From Escherichia phage vB_EcoP_HC-25922, in the sequence record OQ555404.1: a stretch of DNA of 64,000 nt; one strand, written 5' to 3'. This document shows positions 53,188-60,466 of the stretch, one piece after another; the stretch's first letter is position 1, and each line of letters begins with the position of its first letter. A model generated the notes under the pieces. The model did not search any database. It saw only the letters and a program-made list of their open reading frames with translations, and had not been told where the DNA came from. The position numbers and the translations under genes are program-made.

Positions 53188-54423
53188 TTACAGAGTTACT
53201 GCTACTTCGCTACCTTCAACATTTACAGACTCTAACTTGCGAGGGTTATGAATCTGGACTGGATTGACCGGAACGTTCCAACCACTGCGGTAGAAGTTAC
53301 GACCATCACAGAACAGGATGACATTGGCAGACATTGCATTCGGTTGCAGGTTGTTGTGGACATGACGGATATTTGCAATCCAGTAGCCACGAGACAAAGT
53401 GTAGCCAGTAGGTGCATTACGAATAGTTTGAGTATTCATCTGACCTTCCAGTTGCATTTCTTCAGGAACCACATCAACTGAATCAATCGGCTGTGCTACT
53501 TGTCCTTCCAGTGCAAAGTTTTCATCATCAGCACTTTCAATATCATCCACTAACTCACCGTCTCCATCTTCAATCGGAGTCTGGTAAACCACTTTATACT
53601 GAGGAGTATAGAGAGGGTTCTGAGCTTTAACAAACTCAAGAATGTTATGACGGTAGGTATCCAGAGTTGTACCAGTCAGGCCCGGTGCTGTATTAACTTC
53701 CAGTACCCACGCTTCTTGACCTTTGGTGATAATATCAACTGCACCGAAATCCAGACCCATTGATTCAACAGCTTTCACTGCATTGATCAGAGAGGCGTCA
53801 TTCGGAGCATCTGTGAAGGAGCTTGAGTAAACCCAGCCAGTGTGGTGATTACGAATATCTTCACGATAGTTAGGGTCTTCGCGATAACCATTGCGACGAA
53901 TCTTCTTCTGAACATAGGTGATTACACCTTTGAACACATGGACACGCCACTCACGACGTGGGCCTTGAATGCCTTTAGTGTACAGTTCAGCTCGACCAAG
54001 ACCATCACCCGGTTCTACAACAACAATGCCCGAACCAGAGTGACCAGTCAGCTCATGGCGCTCATACACAATATTACCAGTGTTTGACCACTCTTGAGCA
54101 GTCTCTTGAACATCTGTGTATTCCACAGTTTTAACACCTGCTTGGTCCATCACGCTGAAAGCACGACGTTTGTTCGCTGCCATATGTAAGGCTGCGGTAC
54201 GGTTAAGGACGGTTGCAGAACCAAAGAATGATTCAGGATAGCGACGGTTCCCGTAGTTAACAACCACATCACCTTCACGAGAACGCCAGCGGCTATTCTC
54301 TGAAAGAAGACCCATCACGTTAGCATTGATGCGTTCATCACGGATAGTATCACTGATAGCAGATACTAGAGCGTTAACAGAATCAGACGGGCCATACGGA
54401 AGAACACGGATACGAGTAGTCAT
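53188..54423 (-). CDS. ATP-grasp family ligase
   Basis: AWVLEVNTAPGL matches the ATP-grasp Mg-binding E-x-N motif (as in RimK, D-Ala-D-Ala ligase); Gly-rich HSGSGIVVV segment; 411 aa with an extra C-terminal region. Confidence 0.6.
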   Translation of the reverse strand: MTTRIRVLPYGPSDSVNALVSAISDTIRDERINANVMGLLSENSRWRSREGDVVVNYGNRRYPESFFGSATVLNRTAALHMAANKRRAFSVMDQAGVKTVEYTDVQETAQEWSNTGNIVYERHELTGHSGSGIVVVEPGDGLGRAELYTKGIQGPRREWRVHVFKGVITYVQKKIRRNGYREDPNYREDIRNHHTGWVYSSSFTDAPNDASLINAVKAVESMGLDFGAVDIITKGQEAWVLEVNTAPGLTGTTLDTYRHNILEFVKAQNPLYTPQYKVVYQTPIEDGDGELVDDIESADDENFALEGQVAQPIDSVDVVPEEMQLEGQMNTQTIRNAPTGYTLSRGYWIANIRHVHNNLQPNAMSANVILFCDGRNFYRSGWNVPVNPVQIHNPRKLESVNVEGSEVAVTL

Positions 54424-54425
54424 TT

Positions 54426-54647
54426 TTAGATACCTTTTAGTTTAAGAATTTCGTTACGACAGGATTGAATTTTAGCTTCGATTGCCCAATACTCAGCGAA
54501 CATTTCGTCTTCTTGGGCATCACTTGGAGAGTCGATTAAGTTAAAAGCAAACGGATACAGCTTTCGCTGCTCCGTTACCAGTTGTTGAAGTCGGAGTTGT
54601 TGATACTCCAGCATTGTCAGGTGAGGCTTAGCTCCCTTGCTTGACAT
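54426..54647 (-). CDS. hypothetical small protein
   Basis: ORF between the ATP-grasp and amidotransferase genes; start uncertain (TTG 54656, ATG 54647 or 54614). Confidence 0.3.
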   Translation of the reverse strand: MSSKGAKPHLTMLEYQQLRLQQLVTEQRKLYPFAFNLIDSPSDAQEDEMFAEYWAIEAKIQSCRNEILKLKGI

Positions 54648-54861
54648 GAGGCTCAACTTTAATCCCCTTCATTTTAACATAGTCAGCCAACACGTTATTG
54701 ATAACGGTTGGAAAAGGGATTTCTACTGGAGAGTCAACCAGCTTCCCAATACCTTCTTGCATCCACTTCTGGATTGCTCGGAGGTTATCACATCCTGTGC
54801 TTGTCATCGGAATACGGCGGGTAGTTACCACGTTATCCAACATCAGTTTACGAACTTCCAT
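54628..54861 (-). CDS. hypothetical small protein
   Basis: 77 aa; AAGAGG RBS. Confidence 0.4.
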   Translation of the reverse strand: MEVRKLMLDNVVTTRRIPMTSTGCDNLRAIQKWMQEGIGKLVDSPVEIPFPTVINNVLADYVKMKGIKVEPHVKQGS

Positions 54862-54872
54862 AACTATACCTC

Positions 54873-56906
54873 TTAGTGTTTACCTTTACAGTAATCTGAA
54901 TTACAGATCACCCTGTTTTCTTTGTTCAGTGAGCAAGTTTCTGCATCACGCCACGGAATTTGTTTATAACAGACTGCACAAAACCCAATTGAAGTCCAGA
55001 GGGCTTTTGTAAACTCAGCTGTTCGTTGTCCATCGTAACTGACAACTGTTTTTCGGAGAGAGGTTGACTTTTCTGGAAATGTCTCCGCTTTCTCAGCGGG
55101 TACCTCCTTTGGGGCATTCTTTGGACCATAAACAGAGATGGCATAAGTATCACCACCACGTTTTTCCAAATACGAATTAGGAACATCTGCAAGTGTGATG
55201 TCCCCTGAACGTTTTGCTGAGCTGACCATTACAATCATACGGCTAAGCATACGTTCATCAACACGAACAGCTACTTCAGGACGACGTGGGTTGGTTGTGT
55301 CTACTGCTTTAGTCCAAATATAACCTTCAGATAGAGTAACATTCTTTACTTTATCTTTGATTTCTTTGGAGCAGATATAACAAACGTCTTCACCACGAAG
55401 TTTACTCATTTCGTTGTCAAACTCGAAATCAGTCTTGACTTCACCACAGATAGCACATACACCCAAAGGCACATCTTCTTCCTCTTCAGAGGTTTTAGAT
55501 AACGCTTCGAAGCATTCTGGATGCCAGTATGCCTGATAAGCAAACACAGCCTTACGAGCATCTTTCCAGTCAATGTGCTTATCACAACCACCACAGTCAC
55601 CATGAGAGTGAGATTCCCAGAACTTACGAGTGACTTCTACACCATTCTTAGTGATGAAGGAGTCCTCTGCATCAAAAGGGATATCATCATCAAAATCAGC
55701 AGTAGTGCTTTGAGGCTCCTTATCTGTAGCATCAACAAACAGCCCTGAAGTTAGTACGAGGCGAATCATACTGTCCACTTCGGAGATACAAGCAATCGTC
55801 CCGCGATATACTACCTTTGGGTTTTCAAGAGCCTTAAGATATTCATCTTTGGCTACGTTGTGAACATCCCCTTCGACATACTCTTGAGCTTTATCATCGT
55901 AGATGTAACCAACCATCTTACCACGATCTGTGTTGTTATAAGCATGGAACTCGTGAGGAATAATATCCACACGACCATCACGACGATAAGGAAGACCACG
56001 ATCGGCAGCCAGTTTGTTCTGGTCTTCAATCGCTTTACGACGACGAATGTCTCCGCTTGTCACGCCGGGCTTGTCGTCTTTGTTTCCGTAAATGTCGCTT
56101 GTGCTGCTGCTTGATTTGTTTGTCTGTTGGTTCTGATAAAGAGAGGAGTTCGAGTAATAGCCGCCCCAGCGACTCGTTACCGTAAAAACCGGAAGCGTGT
56201 GCTCCACCTCTTGAACCAGAGTCATACGACTGTTAGACACATCAAAGATATACTCAGTTCCCACTTTACATTCGAAGTGGTCATTGATACGGTTCTTATG
56301 GGACTTAGAACGCTCTAAAATCCACATAAGCATAGCTTCTTCAGAAGCTCCAAACCAATCCAAACCACAGCGGGCTAGGTGGAAAGGACGCTCATCATTA
56401 CGGATAATGTGAAGTGTGTTGTCTTTAGCATCATGCCAAATCAAAGTGAATGCACCATCCAGTTTTTGGATAGTCTCTGCTGCTCCAATGGTGTTAATTG
56501 AGTGGCAGATGTTTTCACTATCAACTTCGAAACGCTTACTGTCAGGAAGGAGATCTTGATCTAACAGGGTTCCATTATGAACCAGAGTAATATCCCCGTG
56601 AGTAAATGGGTGAGCATTTCGAGCATTGACAGCCCCACGAGTGGCATGTCGGCTGTGACCAACAATCCACGAAGGAGGAACTACGTAGTTCGTAAGCCCT
56701 TTGGTAATATTTGTATATTCTGTCTGGAGCATAAAAGCATAAGAAGGAAGAGCTTCTTTATAAGAGAAGACTTGCTTTTCACCTTTACGCTGACCAAACA
56801 CACCAGTTGAGTGCTGTCCACGGAAAACACCAGCATACAGAAGTTGGTTGAAAATGTCCAAATCTGCTGAGGTCATGTTGCCGCCAGCTAATACGATACC
56901 ACAAAT
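54873..56906 (-). CDS. PurF-type class II (Ntn) glutamine amidotransferase domain fused to a Cys-rich C-terminal domain; probable ATT start
   Basis: In-frame upstream of the track ATG lies K-I-CGIVLAGGNM, matching the PurF N-terminus MCGIVGIAGVM; also FRGQHSTGVF, VGHSRHATRG...HPF, LVHNGTL; AGGTGG RBS 8 nt before ATT 56904-56906; C-terminal CxxC clusters. Confidence 0.7.
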   Translation of the reverse strand: MCGIVLAGGNMTSADLDIFNQLLYAGVFRGQHSTGVFGQRKGEKQVFSYKEALPSYAFMLQTEYTNITKGLTNYVVPPSWIVGHSRHATRGAVNARNAHPFTHGDITLVHNGTLLDQDLLPDSKRFEVDSENICHSINTIGAAETIQKLDGAFTLIWHDAKDNTLHIIRNDERPFHLARCGLDWFGASEEAMLMWILERSKSHKNRINDHFECKVGTEYIFDVSNSRMTLVQEVEHTLPVFTVTSRWGGYYSNSSLYQNQQTNKSSSSTSDIYGNKDDKPGVTSGDIRRRKAIEDQNKLAADRGLPYRRDGRVDIIPHEFHAYNNTDRGKMVGYIYDDKAQEYVEGDVHNVAKDEYLKALENPKVVYRGTIACISEVDSMIRLVLTSGLFVDATDKEPQSTTADFDDDIPFDAEDSFITKNGVEVTRKFWESHSHGDCGGCDKHIDWKDARKAVFAYQAYWHPECFEALSKTSEEEEDVPLGVCAICGEVKTDFEFDNEMSKLRGEDVCYICSKEIKDKVKNVTLSEGYIWTKAVDTTNPRRPEVAVRVDERMLSRMIVMVSSAKRSGDITLADVPNSYLEKRGGDTYAISVYGPKNAPKEVPAEKAETFPEKSTSLRKTVVSYDGQRTAEFTKALWTSIGFCAVCYKQIPWRDAETCSLNKENRVICNSDYCKGKH

Positions 56907-56983
56907 TTTCTAATCCACCTGAAGGGTAAACCCTTTCATCTAATTAACCTTTAAATGCGCCCTGTATAAGAGCGCCCGTTGTG

Positions 56984-58084
56984 TTACAGCAGTCGTTCTA
57001 ATTGCATTTCCAGATGGTCTGGAATATAACCAGTGACGTTATCATCACTGCTACCTGATTCACGCATCAATGCAAACATGTGACGAATTTCACGAACCGT
57101 TGCGATTCGAGTGCTTTCAATCTGAGGGGTGTAGTAGGTCATGATCTCTTCGTAGACACTGTTGGCATTACCGCGCACATATCCCAAGAAACCATAGAAG
57201 TCATTCATATCACGTAAGTTGATAAGGACTTCACCATCAGGGCCAGTCTGTTGCACACGAACACGACCAACCAAAGTTACAGATTGCTCACGACAGAAGA
57301 GAATATCACGAGCAAGACGATACCCTTCAGTGAGATCACTGTCTCTTGGAGTATAGTCTAGGGGTAGATGTTGAATCATAGGAGCGAAGCGCAGCTCATT
57401 CAACTTCTCAACATAAGCTTCATTGTCTAAATCTGCATATTCAACAGCCAGTTTCTTGAGAACCAAGAAGCGGTTGACCAGATTCAGAAGTTGGCTCTTT
57501 TTCCACTTCGGCTCTGAGATACGGAACTCAACAGAACCAAATTGAGATAGAGGCAAAAGATTAAGGGAGGTATATTTATCCCAGCTATTAACAAGAGAGT
57601 GGAAGAAAGCTTCCCCGTCTCGGTTGAACGCTGACGAAGCATTCATAACTTGTGCTTGAACGACAGCAAAAGCTGGACAGAAGTTGCTACGATAGCGATG
57701 GTATCCAGAACATTTGAACATCATCTTTTCATAGAACGTCCATCCAAGAATAACTTTCTTAAGGATATTACTATCAGCGTCACGCATATCCATATGAACG
57801 TGAGTGGAGCAGCGCCAAGTTCCCTCGGCTCCAGAATCCTGTACTGCTTCACTCAGATTGTTAATAGCACGAAGTAATTCTTCACCGTTGTAAGGTCGTG
57901 CACATACTAATTCACAACCATCACGAAGAGAGCCATCTTCAGTACAAACCCACATATCAGCGTCAATGTCAGTTGTACCTTCGACTTCTAACTCAATACC
58001 AACACCACACTGAAAAGCAATACTTGGATGCGGTTCAGATAAGCGAGGGTTACGGTATCCAAAAACTTGTGCTACGGTTGTCAT
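56984..58084 (-). CDS. glutamine-synthetase-like carboxylate-amine ligase (amidoligase, YbdK/GCS2-like)
   Basis: GIELEVEG (E.E motif), DGSLRDGCELV and STHVHMDM (H.H motif) in the order seen in GS-like COOH-NH2 ligases. Confidence 0.55.
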   Translation of the reverse strand: MTTVAQVFGYRNPRLSEPHPSIAFQCGVGIELEVEGTTDIDADMWVCTEDGSLRDGCELVCARPYNGEELLRAINNLSEAVQDSGAEGTWRCSTHVHMDMRDADSNILKKVILGWTFYEKMMFKCSGYHRYRSNFCPAFAVVQAQVMNASSAFNRDGEAFFHSLVNSWDKYTSLNLLPLSQFGSVEFRISEPKWKKSQLLNLVNRFLVLKKLAVEYADLDNEAYVEKLNELRFAPMIQHLPLDYTPRDSDLTEGYRLARDILFCREQSVTLVGRVRVQQTGPDGEVLINLRDMNDFYGFLGYVRGNANSVYEEIMTYYTPQIESTRIATVREIRHMFALMRESGSSDDNVTGYIPDHLEMQLERLL

Positions 58085-58707
58085 AATGATTCCACCAACT
58101 CTACATTATATGATGACAGGTCTGAAGAAATATGCTTGAACTTCTCCAGAAGGTTTAAAGATTGACGACCATTGTCGCCATAACCAGCTTCAAGAAGCAC
58201 GTTTCCAACGTAAGCCCCTTTGTAATAAACTTTTCCATCGACAGGATTGATATAGATGAAACGAGTAACCAACCCTTCAAACTCTGGATTAAACAGGTTG
58301 TACACCAAATCACCCGGAATCGAACGTCCGAGAGAAGGTGGAGTACCACGAAGTTTATTCCCCATCAAGCCTTTAGCTCGCTGACGAACAGGGTTGATAT
58401 GGGTCCAGCTCACCATGTTATTGCCATGCTGAAGGTATCCTACATCTGGAGACTCCAGAATGAGGCTGTGATCAAACACTGGGATATTACTAACAATCTG
58501 ACGTTCAAACTGACCTTCGGAGTTTTTAGTCCAGCGCTCCGCCTCAAACACTAAAGACATTTCAGCGTCGTGTGAGTAGTCGTCGATATCAAAGTTACCT
58601 TGCTGACGAACATCAAGCACATATAGAGGGAGGTTTTTACCATCAGGTGATCGCTGAGCAATCCATGTTCCACAATAATAGTGTTGAAAATCTCTTAACA
58701 AGCTCAC
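58081..58707 (-). CDS. hypothetical protein
   Basis: 208-aa ORF within the ligase locus. Confidence 0.45.
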   Translation of the reverse strand: MSLLRDFQHYYCGTWIAQRSPDGKNLPLYVLDVRQQGNFDIDDYSHDAEMSLVFEAERWTKNSEGQFERQIVSNIPVFDHSLILESPDVGYLQHGNNMVSWTHINPVRQRAKGLMGNKLRGTPPSLGRSIPGDLVYNLFNPEFEGLVTRFIYINPVDGKVYYKGAYVGNVLLEAGYGDNGRQSLNLLEKFKHISSDLSSYNVELVESL

Positions 58708-58716
58708 AATATCACC

Positions 58717-59523
58717 TTATACAATCTGGAGTTTAGAGGAGAATTTATCCGCTTCTTTAACATCGTTACTGTTGATGATGTTGTGAAGCTTTTCAATTGG
58801 AAGGCGAGAGTGAAGTGACATCAATACTTCCATATCACAGCCTTGAACAACCTTATCAACTTGCTCATAAACAAACTTGCGGGTTGACTTCTCGCCAATC
58901 CAGAAGTTAGAAAGAGAACGATATTCAATACCGTAATCTTTGTAGCGAATGGCAGAAGCCTTTCCGTATAACTCTTTACGACGAGTATCTTTATCCATGA
59001 TCACAGCTGGCAAGGACAGGAAGTAATCACACAACACACCCAACATCATTTGAGTCTGACGACTAATTTCCAGCGTACCAGTGACGCCAAGGTGAACATG
59101 ACCACCAGCAGTACGCAGACCTTTGTCTGTCGCTACTGGAGATGGGTTTTTCTGACCAGTGAAGGCGTTGAAATCAGGAGTACAACCAAATACAAAGGCT
59201 GACGGATGGAAAGATTCCATCTCTTCTGAAGTGAACACATGAGAGCTAATCCCAAGTGCTGCCTCCATGCCACGTTCATTGAGAACTTTGTTAGTCAGAT
59301 CAATACCACGCTGAATGTTATCATTAAACGCTTCAAACCCTTTCTGTGGGTTAATATCGAACTCGGCCAGAACGTTGTCTTCTTGAAGACGAACATCAGG
59401 GGCCAGATCAATTTTGTTGTCTTTAGAGCAGCCCAGCTTACCAGCCACAGAGGTGATAATACCAGAAGCAGTACGAACAAACATTTCAGGGTCAGAACCA
59501 ATAAGGAAAGCACGCTTAGTCAT
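58717..59523 (-). CDS. second, divergent GS-like ligase-like protein
   Basis: Start ATG 59523 with GGAG RBS; AFLIGSDPEMFV and GGHVHLGV resemble the G.E.E and H.H ligase motifs, but divergent. Confidence 0.4.
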   Translation of the reverse strand: MTKRAFLIGSDPEMFVRTASGIITSVAGKLGCSKDNKIDLAPDVRLQEDNVLAEFDINPQKGFEAFNDNIQRGIDLTNKVLNERGMEAALGISSHVFTSEEMESFHPSAFVFGCTPDFNAFTGQKNPSPVATDKGLRTAGGHVHLGVTGTLEISRQTQMMLGVLCDYFLSLPAVIMDKDTRRKELYGKASAIRYKDYGIEYRSLSNFWIGEKSTRKFVYEQVDKVVQGCDMEVLMSLHSRLPIEKLHNIINSNDVKEADKFSSKLQIV

Positions 59524-60466
59524 TGTAATACTCCACGAGTTCATCAAAAAGGGAAACAACACGAGCACCAGCTTCTTCTGGTGTCATTGAGGAAGGTACT
59601 GCTTGCATCAGACGTTCGATAAAACTTCGAACAGTAATTCTGTCCATACGCTGATCTAATACTTCTCGCTTGTGACCTGCACAAGTTGACCAGAGACGTA
59701 ACCACTCACTCATACTCTCATAATGGTCAGGGTCTTGGTCACGACGACGTGCCATACGACGGAGAACTCCATCATTATGGTTTCGTACATAACCATCTCG
59801 GTTGTCATCAACACCGAATACATTCTGAACCCATACGTTTTCAGAAAATTCATCAGTGGTGCAAATTAATGGCAGAAATGCAATTGCACTCATGTCGCCA
59901 TCAAAATAAGTCGCTGCTGACTCATCGGTTGAGCCTACGTCATTACTATAACACCAGCGACCAAAGAAGTTACGACTTAAACCAGCTAAGCGTAGAGCTA
60001 AACCGATTCGTTGTCGCTTAAGCAACTCTTCCTTGTCTTGTACGCCTTCCTGAAGGAACTCCATTCCATTAAAATCACCATCCAAATAGCTACGGATGGT
60101 CATTAGTCCAGTAAACACCTTGTCTGCTGGATGGTTTCGAAGGTTCACGGCAATGGAGTTCACCGAAGTGACAGAGAACATATCTTTATAGCAAGACATT
60201 GAGTTAAAAATATCTGTTGCTTCAACTAAAGCTCTTTCGATATCTTTAGCTGGCACGCCATAAAAATTGTGAGGCCAGAAGTTAATAACTTCAATTTCTG
60301 AAGTTCTATCACGAAGGCTTGTTCGGTTACGACTTTCACCGTTAATGTCTGTAACAGAATACATGTGCATACAGTTAAAAGTACCAAAGCAAGCTCTTCC
60401 TTTGAACACTGACTCACCGAAATCCTCTGCCGATGTTACCGGAGCAATCGATGCGGAGATTGACAT
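59516..60466 (-). CDS. hypothetical protein
   Basis: 316-aa ORF. Confidence 0.45.
   Translation of the reverse strand: MSISASIAPVTSAEDFGESVFKGRACFGTFNCMHMYSVTDINGESRNRTSLRDRTSEIEVINFWPHNFYGVPAKDIERALVEATDIFNSMSCYKDMFSVTSVNSIAVNLRNHPADKVFTGLMTIRSYLDGDFNGMEFLQEGVQDKEELLKRQRIGLALRLAGLSRNFFGRWCYSNDVGSTDESAATYFDGDMSAIAFLPLICTTDEFSENVWVQNVFGVDDNRDGYVRNHNDGVLRRMARRRDQDPDHYESMSEWLRLWSTCAGHKREVLDQRMDRITVRSFIERLMQAVPSSMTPEEAGARVVSLFDELVEYYND

Follow-up and report, generated by a model that had tools for sequence, protein, structure and literature searches.

The locus and its start region

The window analysed in this work is a stretch of 64,000 nucleotides (nt) from Escherichia phage vB_EcoP_HC-25922 (OQ555404.1), a phiEco32-like podophage of E. 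coli. The gene in question lies on its minus strand, encodes a putative class II (N-terminal nucleophile, Ntn) glutamine amidotransferase, and appears to be translated from an ATT codon. The region is 100% identical to that of the Escherichia phages vB_EcoP-101114UKE3, IME267, and MLP3 (Gordonclarkvirinae, Suseptimavirus). The start region and the gene comprise the following features:

54873..56906, minus: full-length coding sequence (CDS) of the putative class II (Ntn) glutamine amidotransferase, read from ATT, 677 codons plus stop
Residues 1 to ~240 of this CDS: GATase domain; the remainder is a Cys-rich C-terminal region
56904..56906, minus: ATT, proposed initiation codon, presumably decoded as formylmethionine (fMet), from the sequence read and the comparison with relatives
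56901..56903, minus: TGT, predicted catalytic Cys (Cys1 once Met is removed), from the family alignment and the GlmS/PurF profile
56909-56907, minus: AAA
56912-56910, minus: TAG, in-frame stop
56907..56914, minus: A-rich 8-nt spacer ATTAGAAA, which holds the in-frame TAG
56915..56920, minus: Shine-Dalgarno (SD) sequence AGGTGG, 8 nt before ATT
56874..56876, minus: first in-frame ATG (Met11), the start used by most annotators; not conserved

Read from 56912, the minus-strand order is TAG AAA ATT TGT GGT ATC GTA TTA GCT GGC GGC AAC ATG ACC, and the in-frame translation across the start region is Q-V-D-(stop)-K-I-C-G-I-V-L-A-G-G-N-M-T. The leader 5' of ATT reads TTC AGGTGG ATTAGAAA and is followed by ATT TGT. 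Between TAG and the Cys codon, AAA and ATT are the only in-frame codons, and no ATG, GTG, or TTG was found there on the minus strand. The first in-frame ATG follows 10 codons downstream of ATT, and no good SD was seen 5' of it (56876, minus strand). Out-of-frame UUG and GUG codons within AUUUGUGG were dismissed as starts by inspection, with conservation being confined to the ATT frame.

An earlier sequence-only reading of this DNA had described the segment K-I-C-G-I-V-L-A-G-G-N-M, the TAG, the AAA and ATT codons, and an AGGTGG 8 nt off, and had offered either AUU initiation or a base call that hides an ATG. All of these details were correct when the region was read again. With regard to the two options, we put the probability at roughly 85% that translation of the amidotransferase starts at AUU (56906-56904, minus), with AGGUGG 8 nt upstream.

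The gene product as a putative class II amidotransferase

The likeness to the PurF N-terminus that had been pointed out earlier is not a chance match, as judged from the invariance of C2, the GlmS/PurF profile, and the GATase_6 score. Pfam GATase_6 matched residues 75-174 with 53.7 bits (cut-off 27, E=2.7e-14), and GATase_7 matched with 25.1 bits (cut-off 25). Within an alignment of 36 homologous N-domains (A1), the positions M1, C2, G3, R29, G30, H84, R86, N111, G112, D129, and S130 were invariant. The glutamine-site residues R86, N111-G112 (oxyanion hole), and D129 were thus kept in all 36 homologs, and HNG and DSE align with GlmS. A PDB search with the single sequence returned no match, and a profile was needed to reach the known structures. 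The profile of A1 found GlmS with an E value of ~1e-23 and PurF with 6.6e-15, and its position 2 (Cys) coincides with the first residue of the mature chains of GlmS (1xff) and PurF (1ecb).

By domain score, Cys position, and glutamine-site residues, the predicted protein fits class II (Ntn), and the CGIV segment upstream of Met11 can be read as part of it. The catalytic Cys stands directly behind the initiator Met, as in other members of the class, only if translation begins at ATT. As the Cys must be residue 2, the family fixes the start site unambiguously.

Conservation of the ATT codon among phiEco32-like phages

The comparison set for the phiEco32-like phages consisted of 96 phage records matching the region, in which one block stands out:

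56899..56953, minus: 55-nt invariant block including ATT, common to Suseptimavirus, Kuravirus, and Nieuwekanaalvirus

This block was at least 99% identical in 96/96 records, ATT included, and 93-97% of its columns were invariant, compared with 20-83% per 30-nt window of the flanks. Eight representatives drawn from Suseptimavirus, Kuravirus (phiEco32 among them), and Nieuwekanaalvirus did not differ in the ATT or in the 45 nt ahead of it, and the same ATT was present in 5 IMG/VR contigs. A comparison of ATG versus ATT in related phages had been proposed by the sequence-only reading, and its alternative of a base call hiding an ATG is refuted by the ATT in 96 independently sequenced genomes. Apart from the rarity of ATT starts, nothing favours a sequencing or assembly error that conceals the true ATG. 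Given the 96 phages, the 5 contigs, and the ATT or ATC in approximately 20 distant lineages described below, the probability of such an error is negligible.

Among the genera, every difference within codons 3-9 is a synonymous one at the third position (GGT/GGC, GCT/GCA, GGC/GGG/GGT, GGC/GGA/GGT), and codon 10 alternates conservatively between N and S. Kuravirus and Nieuwekanaalvirus have Leu (CTG or CTC) where the window has Met11. Since Met11 is Leu in two genera and codons 3-9 change only synonymously, the downstream ATG cannot be a conserved start. The next Met in Kuravirus is residue 115, and a start there would remove a much larger part of the domain along with the catalytic Cys. Distant homologs that start with ATG have it at exactly the codon occupied by ATT here. 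Homologs that begin at the downstream Met and lack CGIV, which would have spoken against an AUU start, were not found among the relatives. Most GenBank and RefSeq records nevertheless imply that translation starts at ATG 56876 or later, which would give a Cys-less protein without glutaminase activity and leave the upstream CGIV as a relic. We regard this as very improbable, considering the Leu in two genera, the coding constraint on codons 2-9 with synonymous changes only, the lack of a good SD ahead of the ATG, and the conservation of the full catalytic set C2, R86, N111-G112, and D129.

With regard to other functions of the conserved DNA, several candidates were rejected. The 55-nt block was found nowhere else in the window, and as a unique, single-copy sequence it is not a repeated element; the pattern GGWGG-N8-ATT occurs twice in the window, which is not above chance. 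The consensus of the phiEco32 gp36 promoter, tAATGTAtA (PMC8948821), is absent from the block, and a sigma-70 and terminator scan gave nothing overlapping it. The 5' third of the block (56937-56953, minus, TAAAGGTTAATTAGATG) is kept in the 96 genomes and is without counterpart in other families.

ATT and ATC starts in distant phage lineages

The same arrangement was found in approximately 20 distant phage lineages with ~35-66% protein identity, including Pseudomonas, Klebsiella, and marine Zobellviridae phages. Most of the 46 database homologs begin with MCG[IL]V. Three of them (P0004, P0012, and P0017; 37-66% identity), which gene callers had extended upstream, carry an Ile ahead of the Cys, encoded by ATT in 3/3 and with AGGAGG or AGGTGA upstream. 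At the 80 best of ~280 related IMG/VR loci, the codon ahead of the Cys was ATG in 69, ATT in 8, ATC in 2, and TTG in 1, and wherever Ile occurred, the codon was always ATT or ATC and never ATA. Cultured phages with the feature are Pseudomonas FBPa8 (ATT) and O4 (ATC, same site), Klebsiella KpnP_VR7901 (ATT), and Melvirus T4S1 (ATT); ATG stands at the start in the LUZ24-like phiIBB-PAA2 and in Salinivibrio CW02. Within Paundecimvirus, O4 (L129) has ATC and FBPa8 (L109) ATT at the same site, with the same hairpin and SD, and both are annotated from a downstream Met. One homolog (L041, IMGVR_UViG_3300025276_000050) opens with ATG TGC TGT GG (M-C-C-G) and so has an additional Cys ahead of the conserved Cys-Gly.

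For the following counts, 20 representatives of the ATT/ATC lineages with <80% identity to one another were used. In 14/20, the frame upstream of the ATT or ATC runs into a stop without passing an ATG, GTG, or TTG, and a propeptide made from an upstream start can therefore be ruled out as a general explanation. The spacing of 8 nt from GGAGG to ATT/ATC recurred in 17 further lineages, and the spacer ATTAGAAA was identical in L107 (~37% protein identity) and L123. When IMG/VR was searched with the pattern GGWGGAT-N6-[start]-TGYGGNNTNGT, 18 true family members had ATT versus 2 with ATG. A cellular origin of the arrangement was also considered and rejected: in 596 Gb of genomes from bacteria and archaea the pattern matched 76 times, and only 1 match was a family member, located on a 4-kb contig of a metagenome-assembled genome, and the arrangement is therefore a phage feature.

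In the closest relatives of the phiEco32 clade, at 56-64% identity, the start is ATG, the SD is weak, and the hairpin is missing; the one among them with a taxonomy record is Proteus phage 3H10_20 of the Grimontviridae. The arrangement is either an old one that has repeatedly given way to ATG and a weak SD, or one that spreads by recombination. With no canonical start available for the N-terminus, a suitable SD spacing, and a conserved codon, the gene has the sequence characteristics of the non-canonical AUU/AUC class, and we consider the amidotransferase a well-supported candidate addition to the known AUU/AUC-initiated genes.

A covarying hairpin next to the Shine-Dalgarno sequence

The AGGTGG 8 nt before ATT had been recognized from the sequence alone; a conserved hairpin directly 5' of it had been missed:

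56922..56935, minus: hairpin AAGGG-TTTA-CCCTT, ending 1 nt (C) 5' of the SD

The layout common to the ATT/ATC loci consists of a perfect hairpin of 5-7 bp with a loop of 3-5 nt, a gap of 0-2 nt, (A)GGAGGAT, and then ATT/ATC and TGY GG, with a distance from GGAGG to ATT/ATC of exactly 8 nt. The Melvirus locus (~37% protein identity) shows AGGGGT-TGTG-ACCCCT, AGGAGG, ATTAGAAA, and ATT. A hairpin was present in 18/20 ATT/ATC lineages versus 2/47 ATG lineages, and in 300 shuffles the former count reached 1.5 on average and 7 at most. A covariance model built from five seeds was used to search 356 kb and returned 23 matches at E<0.01, all at ATT/ATC starts of the amidotransferase gene; the only match in the window was 56895-56943(-) with E=3.5e-4. 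In the stem alignment, 99% of the cells were paired, compared with at most 54% in slid controls. No Rfam family was reached, with the best match in the region scoring 21.9 bits (gathering 37) and lying outside the motif, and the whole-leader fold was not more stable than shuffles (z = -0.75). Within the leader fold, only the local hairpin is supported.

Two further observations concern the surroundings of the hairpin. In phiEco32-like phages, a possible lower stem UUAAUU/GAUUAG would put the SD in an internal loop. The sequence GGAGGAUA[AG] gives a stop at -7 (frame +2) in 14/20 ATT/ATC lineages; in four lineages, this is the true stop of the upstream gene (88-413 aa), so that the hairpin lies inside coding sequence, and in most it terminates nothing.

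Both stem and loop lack a conserved sequence. This makes a sequence-specific protein operator unlikely, and such freedom to vary would favour a structural rather than a protein-binding role. Insulation of the SD, stacking on the SD, and protection of the 5' end may be considered as such roles; alternatively, the hairpin could damp expression or shield a processed 5' end. We tentatively propose, at somewhat less than even odds, that hairpin, GGAGGAU, 8 nt, AUU/AUC, and UGY GG form an undescribed, phage-specific structured initiation element. It would have been kept over long distances or exchanged as a cassette and would tie expression to host initiation fidelity (IF3, ppGpp, temperature), with the hairpin acting structurally.

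The upstream reading frame and reinitiation

The TAG upstream of ATT had been noted correctly before, but not that it ends an in-frame upstream open reading frame (uORF) of 9 codons:

56910..56939, minus: in-frame mini-uORF ATG AAA GGG TTT ACC CTT CAG GTG GAT TAG (MKGFTLQVD, then stop), in phiEco32-like phages only
56950-56947, minus: weak SD of the uORF, AAGG

The uORF stops 3 nt before ATT, and its AAGG has a good spacing. This geometry, which is that of E. coli thrS-infC (UAA GGU AUU), raises the question of whether AUU is reached chiefly by termination-reinitiation from the uORF, or from the upstream gene in other lineages; the start would still be AUU, but expression would be uORF-coupled. 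The uORF AUG, the weak AAGG at optimal spacing, and the stop at -6 from ATT are invariant in the 96 genomes. A stop codon lies inside the SD-start spacer in 18/20 ATT/ATC lineages; in 9/20 it closes an ORF that has a canonical start, and 4 of those ORFs are real upstream genes of 88-413 aa. In an infC-like reporter, reinitiation contributed about as much as de novo initiation (PMC3592434). However, 11/20 lineages have no ORF ending in the spacer, including L107 with its nearly identical initiation region, the extended hairpin stem partly occludes the uORF AUG, and a strong, well-spaced SD is kept in every lineage, as de novo initiation requires. Overall, we judge reinitiation as the chief route unlikely, at about one chance in four. 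Coupling as a universal property was rejected: with only 9/20 lineages having such an ORF, it is optional and not defining.

As uORF and CDS share a frame, UAG read-through from the upstream AUG would produce a precursor, MKGFTLQVD-X-K-I-Cys, whose propeptide would then be removed autocatalytically. Propeptide processing is known in Ntn amidotransferases, and in one relative (L024) the frame is open back to an ATG 10 codons upstream. However, this ATG lacks an SD, whereas the SD 8 nt from ATT is present in all lineages, and the 14/20 lineages with a stop and no canonical start upstream have no frame for a precursor. A suppressor tRNA for reading through the TAG was sought and dismissed, as no tRNA was found in the 64-kb window. 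In addition, the Ile before the Cys is always encoded by ATT/ATC, never by ATA and never replaced by another residue, as expected of a start codon and not of a propeptide. A read-through precursor is therefore highly improbable.

Proposed course of initiation

The option of AUU initiation offered by the sequence-only reading is thus supported by the conservation of ATT, the Leu in place of Met11, the synonymous codons, the ATG at the same codon in distant homologs, and the ~20 lineages. Removal of Met ahead of Cys is established knowledge, and since Cys is a permissive second residue, it is expected here. The SD AGGUGG 8 nt upstream would drive initiation at AUU, where initiator tRNA would place fMet to give M-C-G-I-V; deformylase and methionine aminopeptidase would then take off the Met and expose Cys1, the Ntn nucleophile. 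We infer with high confidence that initiation with fMet-tRNA at AUU is followed by exposure of Cys1 through methionine aminopeptidase.

As for the level of expression, AUU initiation and its discrimination by IF3 have been described for infC and pcnB (PMC3592434, PMC5499595). As in these genes, the weak AUU might keep initiation low and IF3-sensitive. The strong SD might offset the weak codon and secure 30S binding, the fast-folding adjoining hairpin might keep the SD single-stranded, and in phiEco32-like phages the 9-codon uORF ending 3 nt before AUU may add termination-reinitiation coupling. For this combination of a limiting, IF3-sensitive codon, a compensating SD, and a hairpin that keeps the SD unpaired, our confidence is low.

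Several points weigh against the AUU start and its proposed control, or qualify the evidence for them. AUU is usually several-fold to >10-fold weaker than AUG (PMC3592434). In reporters, a hairpin placed immediately 5' of the SD had a mildly inhibitory and not a stimulatory effect (PMC3592434), and the helper role of the hairpin is speculative for this reason. All five stem pairs vary on both sides, with 45 cells changed on both sides versus 11.7 in shuffles (0/500 as high), in an alignment that was itself fitted to the covariance model. The median SD-antiSD energy was -9.5 kcal/mol for ATT/ATC and -6.05 for ATG starts (p=3e-6), a contrast that is inflated because 13 ATT lineages were retrieved by a pattern requiring GGWGGAT; the hairpin contrast is not affected by this. 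In a neighbour-joining tree, the ATT/ATC lineages are scattered among the ATG lineages; its branches are long and too poorly resolved for counting independent origins or losses. In favour of expression, proteomics of phage SU10 detected 9 peptides of the amidotransferase, which is thus made during infection (PMC4281155). The mass listed for gp85, 63.8 kDa, corresponds to Met115 as the first residue, and it was this truncated version that the SU10 proteome search used; the assignment of the N-terminus rests on sequence comparison.

Annotation of the gene

The ATT start found by the sequence-only reading was correct, although it missed that the CDS is already annotated from ATT in phiEco32 (phi32_83, NC_010324), Bas87, and Bas90. 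The records of SU7, ECBP2, UKE3, KBNP1711, EP335, and SGF2 start at Met11 or further downstream, those of FBPa8, O4, and KpnP_VR7901 at a downstream Met, and that of T4S1 at an internal codon downstream of ATT. Annotation from such codons deletes the catalytic Cys from the listed protein. This 5' truncation is systematic in GenBank/RefSeq records of phiEco32-like and Zobellviridae phages, with starts that vary between records (Met11, Met115, or other internal codons). The truncated amidotransferase propagates into protein and proteomic databases, and the protein homolog search returned no full-length phiEco32-like entries. A semi-tryptic N-terminal peptide CGIVLAGGNMTSADLDIFNQLLYAGVFR is expected from the ATT start. 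In the searchable literature, no discussion of an ATT start for this gene was found. The ATT start is already public for phiEco32-type phages; what is added here is the cross-family hairpin-SD-AUU/AUC arrangement and the widespread annotation error.

C-terminal region and neighbouring genes

The ~430 residues beyond the GATase domain (54873-56150, minus) contain the CxxC pairs CGGC...H..C, CAIC...CYIC, and CAVC...C..C and gave a weak, sub-threshold LIM match. By its sequence, this CxxC-rich region looks like zinc-ribbon modules. More distant homologs have only ~400 aa, yet they also end in CxxC...CxxC (A1 consensus).

The surrounding features of the window are:

58717-59568, minus: COOH-NH2 ligase gene (PF14395)
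56984..58084, minus: Amidoligase_2 gene (PF12224), upstream neighbour in an operon-like cluster
56957..56975, minus: terminator-like hairpin behind the amidoligase stop codon, with compensatory changes between genera
54628-54861 and 54426-54656, minus: two small overlapping ORFs
53188-54423, minus: RimK-like ATP-grasp gene (PF08443), sub-threshold at 19.6 (cut-off 21)

The order within the cluster (53188-59568, minus) is COOH-NH2 ligase, a hypothetical gene, Amidoligase_2, amidotransferase, the two small ORFs, and ATP-grasp, and the gene thus sits in an amidoligase/COOH-NH2 ligase/ATP-grasp/GATase cluster of the phiEco32 type. The distant metagenomic locus L024 has the same gene set plus a GGACT-family gene. 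The hairpin at 56957-56975 reads GCGCUCU/AGGGCGC versus GUGCCUC/GGGGCAC between genera and has no U-tract; possible roles are weak termination and processing or stabilisation of the transcript.

Significance

For annotation, the consequence is that most public records of the gene in phiEco32-like phages and several Zobellviridae lose the catalytic Cys. The natural use of AUU/AUC in ~10% of the family members greatly exceeds what E. coli shows with its two known AUU genes, and hints that non-canonical starts are under-called elsewhere. In this family, the non-AUG codon goes closely together with a strong SD and a covarying hairpin, and the family offers a natural system for studying such starts. 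The arrangement also suggests that the dosage of the amidotransferase is under selection within an uncharacterised amidoligase/ATP-grasp pathway.

Comparison with known systems

The predicted protein resembles PurF, GlmS, and AsnB in its N-terminal M-C-G-I-V, in a Cys1 that would serve as nucleophile once Met is removed, and in its GATase_6/7 domain with conserved Arg, Asn-Gly, and Asp residues. In contrast to these enzymes, it has no PRTase, isomerase, or synthetase domain but a ~430-aa Cys-rich C-terminal region, and its phage gene lies in a cluster with amidoligase, COOH-NH2 ligase, and ATP-grasp genes. The PurF of B. subtilis, with its propeptide of 11 residues, also solves the exposure of Cys1. 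However, this solution needs an open frame from a canonical start, whereas here a TAG stands two codons before the Cys. The annotations phi32_83, Bas87, and Bas90 concern the same gene and chose the same ATT; they are annotations only, without the cross-family conservation or the hairpin.

Similar to our candidate, E. coli infC (IF3) has a conserved AUU (AUC or AUA in other species) and an SD-dependent start. In both cases, a stop in the upstream frame lies 3 nt before AUU, with UAA GGU AUU in infC versus UAG AAA AUU here (PMC3592434). The AUU of infC, however, senses its own product (autoregulation), whereas the putative IF3 dependence of the phage amidotransferase would report the host state. 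For infC, we know of no description of a covarying hairpin directly adjoining the SD. E. coli pcnB (poly(A) polymerase), cited in PMC3592434 (ref. 6), is comparable in that an inefficient AUU limits an enzyme perhaps harmful in excess; pcnB, however, is a single chromosomal gene and not a module conserved across many phage families.

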